Virus record (IMG/VR): IMGVR_UViG_3300002143_000172
Coordinates: 1-64,000 of that record
Source of the DNA: a virus
Direction: 5' to 3' (one strand)
Length of the DNA stretch: 64,000 nucleotides
In this document: in pieces, positions 3,765-45,201 of the stretch
Position numbering within the stretch: position 1 is the stretch's first letter
Layout: each line of letters begins with the position of its first letter
Program-made: the position numbers and the translations under genes
The notes under the pieces: generated by a model
Seen by the model: only the letters and a program-made list of their open reading frames with translations
Told to the model about the DNA's origin: nothing
Databases searched by the model: none

Positions 3765-4475
3765 TCAGTCCTTCTTGCCGCCAAACAACTGTAGTAGGTT
3801 AACGAATATGTTAATAAAATCCATATACAAACTTAATGCACCTCGAACTTCGGCAGCATCACTAGTTTCAATACTTAGGTCTTCACGAATCTTTTGTGTA
3901 TCATAAGCGGTTAGTCCGAGAAAAATGATAATAGCCAATGCTGAGATCACCATCTGCCCCACACTACTTCCTACGAATATGTTGATTATACTAGCAATCA
4001 CGATTGCGATCAACCCCACAAGCATAAACTTACCAAGACTGTCTAGATTTTTCTTTGTGAAGTATCCGTAGAAACTTAGCACACCAAACAACACAGCCGC
4101 TCCCATAAAGGCATTAACAATACTGCCCATTTGATAAACTGCAAAGATCATGGAAAAACTTAGACCCATTAGGGCCGCAAAACCATGTAGGCATAATTGG
4201 GCAATTGGTTTGCTTGGATTACTTCCCAATACCATGCTAACACCAAACACTGCTACTAGCGGTGCAAAAATAACTACCCACTTCATTGCACCCGTAAAAA
4301 AGAATTTTAGTAATTCTGGACTCGTACCAACAAAATAACTAACAATCATTGATACAAGGACGGCTAGTCCCATGTGGCCATAGACACGCCCCATGGCACT
4401 ATTAATTTCTTCTGCTGAACGATAATTTAAACGATAATTTAAAATACCGCCATCTGTATAATTTGCACCAAACAT
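3765..4475 (-). CDS. Bax inhibitor-1/YccA family membrane protein
   Basis: about 7 hydrophobic segments; LTAYDTQKI and ALSLYMDFINIF motifs. Confidence 0.9.
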   Translation of the reverse strand: MFGANYTDGGILNYRLNYRSAEEINSAMGRVYGHMGLAVLVSMIVSYFVGTSPELLKFFFTGAMKWVVIFAPLVAVFGVSMVLGSNPSKPIAQLCLHGFAALMGLSFSMIFAVYQMGSIVNAFMGAAVLFGVLSFYGYFTKKNLDSLGKFMLVGLIAIVIASIINIFVGSSVGQMVISALAIIIFLGLTAYDTQKIREDLSIETSDAAEVRGALSLYMDFINIFVNLLQLFGGKKD

Positions 4476-36323: not shown

Positions 36324-36397
36324 TGGTGCCCGGAGCCGGACTCGAACTTGTGATAAAGGCTTATCAAGCCTCCGTTATACCGTTTAACTACAGAGCT
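36324..36397 (-). pseudogene. chimeric pseudo-tRNA (Ile(GAU) 5' part fused to Leu-type 3' end)
   Basis: T-stem ACAAG/CCGGC unpaired; 3' end nearly identical to adjacent tRNA-Leu(UAA). Confidence 0.7.
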
Positions 36398-36409
36398 GTC
36401 TTACTAACT

Positions 36410-36708
36410 TGGTGCTCCGAGCCGGAATCGAACCGGCACGCCATTACAGCGAGGGATTTTCTTACCACTATAGTTTTCACTACCTTTGCAGTTTGGTGGT
36501 CTGGACTATACCTTCATCATAGCATTACTGCCTTAGATGCTCGCCGTCTAGTCTCTACACGTTCAAAGTAATTTCTTACTAAGCTTCGCTCGGTATTAGC
36601 ATGTTAAAGCCTTCACCGAATTTGACGAGTTCTACTCCCGGCATTTCCACCGGGGCACTCAAATTTTACTCTCAAGTCCCTTGTGTCTACCTATTTCACC
36701 ATCAGAGC
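36410..36708 (-). tRNA. tRNA-Leu(UAA) split by group I intron
   Basis: exons 36674-36708 and 36410-36460 join to AGGGA-CU-UAA-AA-UCCCU. Confidence 0.92.
36461..36673 (-). mobile_element. group I intron (IC3-like, no ORF, 213 nt)
   Basis: P AAUUCGGUGAA, Q AAUACCGAGC, R GUAGAGACUAGACGG, S AAGGUAUAGUCC, terminal G, inserted after U34. Confidence 0.92.
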
Positions 36709-37293
36709 AATTAATCTTTTCATTCTTTCGTAGTTGCCGCCTTTTGCAGCTAGTCCTACTTCTAATAATGCTTGTCGTATGTTACTACATTTTGCATATG
36801 CTGTCAATAGCTCTTGGTCAGTTACTTTAACTTTCCCCGAGTTGATATTTCTACCTCTCCATGTTGGAGTTAATGCATGACAGTTACAACATAATAGTTT
36901 AAGATTTTCCCTTGTATTATGTTTGTTATCACCGTCGACATGCTCTAATTCTAACGGTATAGGACTGGACTGCCACTCGGTCAATCCACACCCTTCACAT
37001 TGGTAACCTCGCTCTTGTATAAGAGCCGATTTGTGATTACCAATACCATCGTACTCAAATTTTGTATTGGAATAATTACCTTTATTCCAATTCATTTTAG
37101 TTTTGGTGTCCGCTGGCAAATTTGCATACCTGATTTTTGCAGGCAAACGATTACCTAACTCGTATACTGCTTTAGTTCTTTCTGAGTTAATTGCTTTAAG
37201 TACACTGCATCCTGCGGGTCTGGCGCAACAGCAATTTTTACCATTTTTTAAAACAAACTTAGATGCAGTGTTGCATCCGTAATCACATAACAT
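36691..37293 (-). CDS. HNH homing endonuclease; stop codon inside tRNA-Leu 5' exon
   Basis: CEGCG, LELEHVDG, NLKLLCCNCHA. Confidence 0.9.
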   Translation of the reverse strand: MLCDYGCNTASKFVLKNGKNCCCARPAGCSVLKAINSERTKAVYELGNRLPAKIRYANLPADTKTKMNWNKGNYSNTKFEYDGIGNHKSALIQERGYQCEGCGLTEWQSSPIPLELEHVDGDNKHNTRENLKLLCCNCHALTPTWRGRNINSGKVKVTDQELLTAYAKCSNIRQALLEVGLAAKGGNYERMKRLIALMVK

Positions 37294-41447: not shown

Positions 41448-41524
41448 TGGTACCTCCGGCGGGAGTCGAACCCCCAACCACCTGCTTCTAAGGCAAGCCG
41501 CACTACCAATTAGCGTACGAAGGC
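41448..41524 (-). tRNA. tRNA with Leu(UAG) anticodon, short variable loop
   Basis: 77-nt class I cloverleaf. Confidence 0.85.
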
Positions 41525-41529
41525 ATATA

Positions 41530-41606
41530 TGGTACCCCGTGTCTGATTCGAACAGACATCCAACTCCTTTTGAGAGAATTCGCACTACCAATTAGCGTAA
41601 CGGGGC
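41530..41606 (-). tRNA. tRNA with Leu(CAA) anticodon, short variable loop
   Basis: 77-nt class I cloverleaf, same D-arm as neighbour. Confidence 0.85.
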
Positions 41607-42487: not shown

Positions 42488-42579
42488 TGGCGGAAGACGG
42501 AGGAGTCGAACCCCATCCCATTTCTGAGAACCCAGTTTTCAAGGCTGGTCGGCGCACCAACGCACCTGCATCATCTTCC
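42488..42579 (-). tRNA. tRNA-Ser(UGA), 8/4 fold
   Basis: 8-bp acceptor, 4-bp T-stem, G73, long V-arm. Confidence 0.8.
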
Positions 42580-43886: not shown

Positions 43887-43974
43887 TGGTGAAGAATGAT
43901 GGAATCGAACCACTTGCCGCCACCCCGCTTAACAATGGCCACCGGGTTACAGCCGGCGACGGGGAACATCCTCC
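43887..43974 (-). tRNA. D-armless tRNA-Tyr(GUA)
   Basis: 8-bp acceptor, GCCGG-CU-GUA-AC-CCGGU, long V-arm, 4-bp T-stem, ACCA. Confidence 0.7.
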
Positions 43975-44036
43975 AAAACACACTCTAGCAGTTTATCTTT
44001 CTGCCTCTTTGTACTATGTACTCGGAACGAATGTGT

Positions 44037-45080: not shown

Positions 45081-45201
45081 ATTATACAGTTATTTAGCAT
45101 CGCTGTCAACCTCTTTTTATATTTTTGACAAAAAAGATTTTTAACAACTCTTCTTCCTAACCATGTGTCTATTGTATATTTATTTAGCATCGCTGTCAAC
45201 C
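45081..45201 (-). promoter_or_regulatory. tandem sigma70 promoters (direct repeat) heading the tRNA array
   Basis: TTGACA-17-TATAAT (45081-45109) and TTGACA-17-TACAAT (45171-45199), both with TAAATA in spacer. Confidence 0.9.

Follow-up and report, generated by a model that had tools for sequence, protein, structure and literature searches.

A D-armless tRNA(GUA) gene with a covarying pseudoknotted core in tRNA arrays of phages and Planctomycetota

The window analysed here is a stretch of 64,000 nucleotides of viral DNA (positions 1 to 64,000 of IMG/VR record IMGVR_UViG_3300002143_000172). The whole record is 159 kb long and is rated ~44% complete by CheckV, thus the virus is probably a jumbo phage. 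ARAGORN detects 31 tRNA genes in the window, on the minus strand and between 28.7 and 43.9 kb; 19 amino acids are served, Tyr being the missing one. This co-oriented array, in which homing-endonuclease-like ORFs are scattered among the tRNAs, is headed by an 88-nt gene (the Tyr gene) read from the sequence as a non-cloverleaf tRNA(GUA) with an encoded CCA (minus strand, 43974 to 43887). It fills the single empty slot of an otherwise complete array. Its parts, and the promoters found upstream, are as follows (counts out of 91 refer to the family described below).

43887 to 43974, minus strand: whole gene; the family model R1 gives 96 bits (E = 4e-27)
43967 to 43974, minus strand: acceptor stem, 5' strand GGAGGAUG (8 nt), partner of 43891 to 43898
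43965 to 43966, minus strand: UU connector, U8/N9 position (U in 82/91 at the first position and in 73/91 at the second)
43960 to 43964, minus strand: helix X, 5' strand CCCCG, at the position of the D-stem 5' strand, partner of 43923 to 43927
43940 to 43958, minus strand: anticodon arm, 6-bp stem CGCCGG/CCGGUG, loop CUGUAAC, anticodon GUA at 43948 to 43950
43936 to 43939, minus strand: variable-arm stem V, 5' strand GCC(A), abutting the anticodon stem; its partner is GGC at 43916 to 43918
43928 to 43935, minus strand: A/U-rich first part of the variable-arm loop, UUGUUAAG, with a terminal AAG in nearly all members
43923 to 43927, minus strand: helix X, 3' strand CGGGG, within the variable-arm loop, partner of 43960 to 43964
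43919 to 43922, minus strand: conserved UGG(C) 3' of helix X (the two G in 89/91 and 91/91)
43916 to 43918, minus strand: variable-arm stem V, 3' strand GGC, covarying with 43937 to 43939
43899 to 43913, minus strand: T arm, 4-bp stem GUGG/CCAU, loop UUCGAUU (stem 95.5% paired in the family)
43887 to 43898, minus strand: acceptor 3' strand CAUUCUUC (43898 to 43891), discriminator A73 and encoded CCA (43890 to 43887)
45081 to 45199, minus strand: two consensus sigma-70-like promoters ~1.1 kb upstream of the gene, TTGACA-17-TATAAT (12/12) and TTGACA-17-TACAAT (11/12)

The two promoter candidates are likely, from their sequence, to mark the start of the array transcript. An earlier note on this DNA had described an 8-bp acceptor, a 4-bp T stem and an anticodon arm with GUA, a D-arm replaced by another strand, and a long variable arm carrying a complement to that strand. 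All of these are found on the minus strand. The acceptor GGAGGAUG/CAUUCUUC has 8 bp, including two G-U pairs. Nine bases, UUCCCCGUC, occupy the place of a D arm; the acceptor is separated from the 6-bp anticodon stem by only 8 nt (UU, CCCCG, U), and the D-arm hairpin is absent. The variable region has 26 nt (43939 to 43914, from the 5' strand of V through the AA before the T stem) and includes CGGGG (43927 to 43923), i.e., the complement of CCCCG (43964 to 43960). The note had also called the gene the only Tyr tRNA of the array; pattern scan and family model extend this to the 159-kb record, where it is the sole GUA tRNA-like gene, and some phage and planctomycete relatives carry a canonical tRNA-Tyr as well.

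A second GUA pattern match (G000:C1:83865) was rejected, being the 3' end of a permuted tmRNA-like gene. The latter is made of two pieces, lies outside the window (G000:C1, ~83700 to 83950, minus strand; loci L298 and L299) and ends with a T arm followed by GGGUCC-ACCA. The Rfam tmRNA_permuted model gives 65.9 bits there (cut-off 47), the match stopping at the end of the examined locus.

When compared with the cloverleaf family (Rfam RF00005), the Tyr gene has the acceptor with A73-CCA, the 7-nt anticodon loop, U33 and a purine at position 37. The T loop is also of the usual GUUCRANYC type (GG-UUCGAUU-CC), G53:C61 and the adjoining pair being invariant in the family. The D arm of the cloverleaf is lacking. 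ARAGORN makes no call at the Tyr gene, nor at its homologues in the 31 related loci scanned, and RF00005 gives no match there up to E = 1. The only Rfam match is to tRNA-Sec, with 25.8 bits for a cut-off of 47. Folded alone by minimum free energy, the sequence does not look like a tRNA and is level with shuffled sequences (z = 0.02). Such a failure of the tRNA finders, together with a fold no better than shuffles, would fit a decaying tRNA-Tyr pseudogene having lost its D arm. Moreover, a 5-nt complement could arise by chance in one sequence; since the fold is uninformative, the evidence for the CCCCG/CGGGG pairing lies in covariation among 88 distinct relatives.

Neither megablast with the neighbourhood nor blastn with the 88-nt gene gave a match in deposited phages, and an exact 25-nt scan of IMG/VR gave none either. 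The first relative was reached via a neighbouring protein: contig L001 has a homologue at the equivalent place, with a fully compensated acceptor (GGAGCCCU/AGGGCUCC) and CCCGC/GUGGG as the pairing between D region and variable arm. IMG/VR was then scanned with a T-arm motif (74 loci) and with a second pattern in which the variable region was left free (107 loci). The covariance model R1 gives 51-104 bits to GUA members of the family and at most 36 bits to ordinary tRNAs. With the scan of genomes included, the relatives amount to 91 matches (88 distinct), from uncultured phages and from chromosomal tRNA arrays of Planctomycetota. Helix statistics were computed on the 88 distinct sequences and base-conservation counts on the 91 matches.

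Acceptor helix, 8 bp: 99.6% of cells paired; 8/8 pairs covary; eighth pair GC 68, UA 9, UG 8, AU 2
Helix X (D region with variable-arm loop), 5 bp: 99.8% paired; double changes at 5/5 pairs
Anticodon stem, 6 bp: 98.7% paired; 6/6 pairs covary
Helix V (bases 3' of the anticodon stem with bases 5' of the T stem), 3 bp: 96% paired; middle pair CG 37, UA 23, GC 17, UG 4, AU 3
T stem, 4 bp: 95.5% paired; 1/4 pairs covary

Taken together, 98.4% of the helix cells are paired, vs. 70.9% when the sequences are shuffled (0/500 shuffles reach the observed value) and 38-53% when the partners are slid. Double changes are found at 23/27 pairs. Covariation of CCCCG with CGGGG had been named beforehand as the check for this locus; it was passed, with all five pairs of helix X doubly changed and 99.8% of them paired over the 88 distinct sequences. 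Compensatory variants of helix X are CCCGC/GUGGG, CCCUG/CAGGG, CCUCG/CGAGG and ACACA/UGUGU; those of helix V are GCC/GGC, GAC/GUC, GUC/GAC, GGC/GCC and GCU/AGC. Because of this covariation decay is excluded, and the pseudogene can be put aside as having next to no probability: 88 distinct sequences keep the helices by compensatory changes, a level that none of the 500 shuffles reaches, and the gene is conserved as a single copy in 17 bacterial genomes. That the intact stems speak against decay, as the earlier note argued, is thus borne out. The same holds for its proposal that the variable arm substitutes for the D stem in a new tRNA architecture, supported by the covariation of helices X and V in a family that is widespread and not a one-off.

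The base 5' of the T stem is almost always A and is unpairable with the first base of the acceptor 3' strand, hence the split of the acceptor/T branch is 8/4, not 7/5. The variable arm consists in the family of a true stem and a loop of 17-20 nt, five bases of which form helix X. Since helix V covaries, the 3' strand of helix X sits in the loop of a genuine variable arm. The order of the strands is thus X5', V5', X3', V3', i.e., X and V cross and the core is a pseudoknot. A purely nested model (helix X enclosing a 7-bp anticodon stem, with a GCCA/UGGC stem that remained unproven) was dropped because, in the unbiased scan, the variable-arm stem covaries with the GGC next to the T stem and not with the conserved UGGC. 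The conserved unpaired bases are: (i) the UU connector; (ii) AAG before the 3' strand of helix X, which the second scan pattern imposed in part; (iii) UGG after that strand, imposed by neither pattern; (iv) usually AA before the T stem. This UGG, beside helix X, may be a stand-in for G18 G19 of the D loop at the elbow.

Three sequences have a UCU anticodon on the same pseudoknotted scaffold (L008:4738-4822, L011:7325-7411 and L067:1412-1500). One of these Arg-like forms is 9/3, with 9 bp in the acceptor stem and 3 bp in the T stem.

Outside mitochondria tRNAs are taken to be cloverleaves, and gene finders rest on that assumption. The family departs from this rule in a defined and conserved, covarying way. 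Its acceptor, T and anticodon arms make the RNA a tRNA, yet it lacks the D arm that characterizes both cloverleaf tRNAs and allo-tRNAs. The Tyr gene agrees with canonical class II tRNA-Tyr(GUA) (E. coli tyrT/tyrU, phages T5/SP15 and T6) in several respects: GUA sits in a C32-U33...A37 loop, G1:C72 and A73 are present, the T loop is standard, the variable position carries an arm, and the gene belongs to a phage tRNA array. The 5' strand that follows the UU connector (CCC...) is similar to the 5' strand of the D stem in E. coli tRNA-Tyr. The differences are that the D hairpin is absent, the 3' strand of the D-like helix being found in the 17-20-nt loop of the variable arm (pseudoknot), that the acceptor/T split is 8/4 instead of 7/5, that the anticodon stem has 6 bp, and that RF00005 and ARAGORN miss the gene.

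The 8/4 and 9/3 tRNAs described by Mukai in 2017 include (8/4) tRNA-Ser and tRNA-His of alpha-proteobacterial phages; all of them have a D arm like that of tRNA-Sec, which in the allo-tRNAs combines a long stem and a tetraloop, and the forms given are Ser, His, Cys and Sec, no Tyr form being described (the word tyrosine is absent and tRNA-Tyr appears in a reference title only; PMC5389517). The Tyr gene shares with (8/4) and allo-tRNAs the 12-bp 8/4 branch, the longer anticodon stem, the location in phage tRNA clusters and the weak matches to the tRNA-Sec model. However, these tRNAs keep the tRNA-Sec-like D arm, whereas the Tyr gene has none and has A73 as discriminator. Instead of the serine identity expected for this group, the bases A73, G1:C72 and GUA of the Tyr gene point to Tyr.

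Mitochondrial D-armless tRNAs are A/U-rich and have no compensating helix. A review of non-canonical tRNAs of 2020 describes them as truncated and flexible, a connector replacing the D arm, and mentions D-armless tRNAs in mitochondria only, without ever referring to phages (PMC7609411). The absence of a D hairpin between acceptor and anticodon stems is common to these and to the Tyr gene. The latter differs by its full length (88 nt), its G+C-rich stems, its full T arm and its covarying pseudoknot. Moreover, the strand replacing the D arm is not an unpaired loop but is base-paired, and the gene occurs not in organelles but in phages and Planctomycetota. A pseudoknot, or the lack of a standard D arm, is also known from the tRNA-like structures of plant viruses (e.g., TYMV) and from the tRNA-like domain of tmRNA, which can still be aminoacylated. 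In the plant-virus structures it is the acceptor stem that the pseudoknot forms, and tmRNA has no anticodon arm. By contrast, the Tyr gene has standard acceptor, T and anticodon arms and only the D/variable core is rebuilt. Rfam 15 has no entry for the family; a full-text search of the literature for D-armless tRNAs in phages returned nothing relevant, and the pseudoknotted design was not found described in the papers searched.

The bacterial Tyr identity set, i.e., the bases recognized by TyrRS, consists of G1:C72, A73, G34 U35 A36 and an arm in the variable position. The family has all of these: G1 is found in 89/91, C72 in 89/91, A73 in 88/91 and GUA in 88/91, and the stem V of the arm covaries. 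C32, U33 and A37 are found in 91/91, whereas the stems vary freely. A TyrRS gene was sought in the 159-kb record (~44% complete) and none was found, thus the RNA, if charged, must depend on the enzyme of the host. As the Tyr identity set of bacteria is kept, the host TyrRS would be expected to charge the RNA. The altered core could nevertheless shift the discrimination among class II tRNAs, so that another synthetase of class II type (LeuRS or SerRS) would charge the RNA, either putting a different amino acid at Tyr codons or serving an aminoacyl transfer outside translation. A73 is the main LeuRS identity base too in E. coli. It should be added that allo-tRNAs with non-Ser anticodons are serylated (PMC5389517). 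Such a charging is however improbable: the combination of G1:C72, A73 and GUA is the bacterial Tyr set and is kept in 88-89/91, and Tyr codons make up 3.9% of the 11,917 codons in the long ORFs of the window, where Tyr-to-Leu or Tyr-to-Ser missense would be costly.

The genome scan with R1 gives one copy each in 17 bacterial assemblies. Of these, 14 are titled Planctomycetota or members of the phylum (Planctomycetaceae, Isosphaeraceae, Phycisphaerae, Pirellulales, Planctomycetia), and a further one is labelled only as bacterium (L213). Several bacterial copies are on contigs of several megabases. CCA is not encoded in the 14 planctomycete copies and L213; it is encoded in most phage copies and in the two other assemblies, a Hyphomonadaceae MAG (L237) and a Gammaproteobacteria MAG (L253), which may be phage contigs placed in bacterial bins. 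In a sample of Planctomycetota, matches were found in 5/121 genomes, a value to be read as a lower bound and not as a frequency since strict filters scored 36 candidates per genome. In one Planctomycetaceae MAG (G002) the family gene lies between Leu and Glu in a dense chromosomal array that serves 18 amino acids and in which it is the sole Tyr gene. The RNA is thus best described as an array-type tRNA(GUA), common to phage and bacterial tRNA arrays.

The array of G002 (L270, L280, L285; ~653000 to 657200) packs ~35 tRNA genes into roughly 4 kb, and syntenic arrays are found in G001, G007 and G012. Many tRNAs of arrays of this type have unusual anticodon positions in the ARAGORN output.

A 7/5 version with GUA was found, by pattern scan and reading of the sequence, in the Bacteroides phage crAss001 (MH675552.1, ~4141 to 4236). 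Its helix X is CAUCA/UGAUG and its helix V CUCC/GGAG, with UGG 3' of the 3' strand of X. It lies in an annotation-free gap between tRNA-Lys t16 and tRNA-Phe t17 and is missed by ARAGORN; a pattern scan of the whole record gave no other GUA tRNA-like match. R1 scores this copy at 19 bits only, because the model was built from 8/4 forms and the copy is 7/5; the family is thus wider than R1 reaches. That the family has stayed unannotated in phage and bacterial genomes, including crAss001 as a model crAss-like phage, is explained by the cloverleaf assumed by gene finders.

In phages where the gene heads the array, a motif (CU)AGAGUGUGUU is conserved 5-20 nt upstream of it (window positions 43975 to 44000, minus strand; L001, L010, L039, L046, L071). 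It may be a processing or leader element.

The place of the gene raises another reading, i.e., that of a cis-acting element for processing or regulation of the array transcript (e.g., an RNase P entry site or a leader switch), its likeness to tRNA being incidental. Here and in many close relatives it is indeed the first tRNA-like unit after a ~1.1-kb leader with strong promoters, and AGAGUGUGUU is conserved immediately upstream. This reading is very improbable, for the gene is internal to the array in L013, L040, L015, L016, L018, the planctomycete arrays and crAss001, and a processing role leaves the invariant GUA anticodon loop and A73-CCA unexplained.

A canonical class II tRNA-Tyr-like match is found elsewhere in the genome in 5/5 of the planctomycete genomes tested; in G002 ARAGORN confirms it as tRNA-Tyr, in the usual Thr-Tyr-Gly-Thr cluster. 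Four phage loci (L036, L033, L042, L071) also contain both the pseudoknotted and the canonical class II form. The pseudoknotted gene is thus not always needed as the sole Tyr tRNA, and another role is possible.

Two defence systems of E. coli are pertinent here: Septu and Retron-Eco7 (PtuA-PtuB) stop phages by cleaving the variable arm of the host tRNA-Tyr, and infection is restored by phage tRNA-Tyr genes or by their amplification through homing endonucleases (PMC13096335, PMC12673091). A non-translating mimic of tRNA-Tyr would be one way to meet such a nuclease: the RNA would act as a decoy or sponge for it, or for TyrRS or a modification enzyme, and so protect or regulate the real tRNA-Tyr pool. 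This is the main rival and keeps a small but real share of the probability. It would account for the coexistence with canonical tRNA-Tyr in the four phage loci and the five planctomycete genomes, and overexpressed tRNA-Tyr neutralizes PtuAB toxicity in E. coli (PMC12673091). For a decoy, however, a complete and conserved set of acceptor identity bases would be superfluous, and so would the encoded CCA, the 12 bp of the acceptor/T branch and the standard T loop; moreover, no other GUA tRNA is found in this record nor, by pattern scan, in crAss001.

On balance, and reasoning from sequence, the gene is rather likely to encode a working tRNA of tyrosine type with a rewired core, charged by the host TyrRS and decoding UAU and UAC, escape from nucleases being a plausible reason for its form. 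The acceptor/T branch keeps its usual 12 bp, split 8/4, and the anticodon arm is normal save for its 6-bp stem. The strand corresponding to the 5' half of a normal D stem pairs with five bases of the enlarged variable-arm loop, and this D-like helix, by crossing the short variable-arm stem, gives the pseudoknotted core. UGG beside helix X may take the place of G18 G19 at the elbow. Once charged by the host tyrosyl-tRNA synthetase, the RNA would read UAU and UAC as the Tyr tRNA of the phage array. Finally, the rebuilt variable arm and core may escape defence nucleases that cleave canonical tRNA-Tyr in its variable arm, such as Septu or Retron-Eco7 PtuAB.

Escape from defence nucleases of this kind is plausible as the selective reason, by analogy with E. 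coli systems. It would explain that bacteria and some phages keep the pseudoknotted form beside a canonical copy. Mitochondrial D-armless tRNAs depend on adapted factors. In bacteria, a D-armless tRNA is not known to be accepted by EF-Tu, ribosomes or TyrRS (Krahn 2020 review, PMC7609411). This speaks against a working tRNA-Tyr, as do the canonical copies in several relatives and the three members with a UCU anticodon. A bolder statement, i.e., that a full-length non-cloverleaf tRNA works on ordinary bacterial ribosomes with its D stem built as a pseudoknot, and has spread through arrays because variable-arm-cutting nucleases do not recognize it, is at present a tentative possibility.

If the RNA is charged and decodes, several consequences would follow: (i) a rebuilt D/variable core is acceptable to the TyrRS, EF-Tu, RNase P and ribosome of bacteria; (ii) a new natural scaffold is available for tRNA engineering; (iii) the "missing tRNA-Tyr" of phage arrays is an annotation artefact. 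If nucleases of the Septu or retron type are evaded, this would be a structural counter-defence, going beyond the loop substitutions known so far. crAss001, as a cultured phage carrying the 7/5 version, is thus a testable system.

Other unusual RNAs were met as well. A second non-canonical tRNA-Tyr(GUA) family is found in other phages, at L007:7721-7812, L041:2494-2585 and 14 further IMG/VR loci (alignment A3). The acceptor has 8 bp and the connector 8-9 nt; the D arm resembles that of tRNA-Sec and has a UGGU loop; the anticodon stem is 6 bp long, the variable hairpin is small and covaries, and the T stem is bulged. No such Tyr form is in Mukai 2017. For "type 2" GUA tRNAs, a helix UAAGG/CCUUA analogous to X was ruled out, RNAalifold giving instead a D arm like that of tRNA-Sec, plus a small variable hairpin that covaries.

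In the window, ARAGORN misses an (8/4) tRNA-Ser(UGA) at 42489 to 42579 (minus strand). Its acceptor is GGAAGAUG/CGUCUUCC, its D arm combines a long stem and a short loop, its variable arm is long, and it has G73-CCA. The Rfam tRNA-Sec model gives it 35.4 bits, below the cut-off, and it fits the phage (8/4) tRNA-Ser of Mukai 2017. Its homologue L001:18000-18084 reaches 50.2 bits, i.e., above the tRNA-Sec cut-off despite its UGA (Ser) anticodon, and thus risks being annotated as a selenocysteine tRNA.

Within the tRNA array, a group I intron match at 36327 to 36683 (minus strand; Rfam 50.2 bits, cut-off 50) adjoins a tRNA match that is weak (27 bits) and an ORF for an HNH endonuclease (36691 to 37293, minus strand). 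This region may be a tRNA gene interrupted by an intron with its own homing endonuclease. At 41448 to 41606 (minus strand) ARAGORN gives tRNA-Leu(UAG) and tRNA-Leu(CAA) of only 77 nt, which is too short for the long variable arm of class II, so that these Leu tRNAs are unusual. Finally, ARAGORN calls a tRNA-Ile(UAU) at L001:13020-13111, with homologues in L019, L065, L042, L071 and L027; it is 92 nt long and class II-like, its variable arm being long. UAU is among the anticodons reported for allo-tRNAs (Mukai 2017, PMC5389517).
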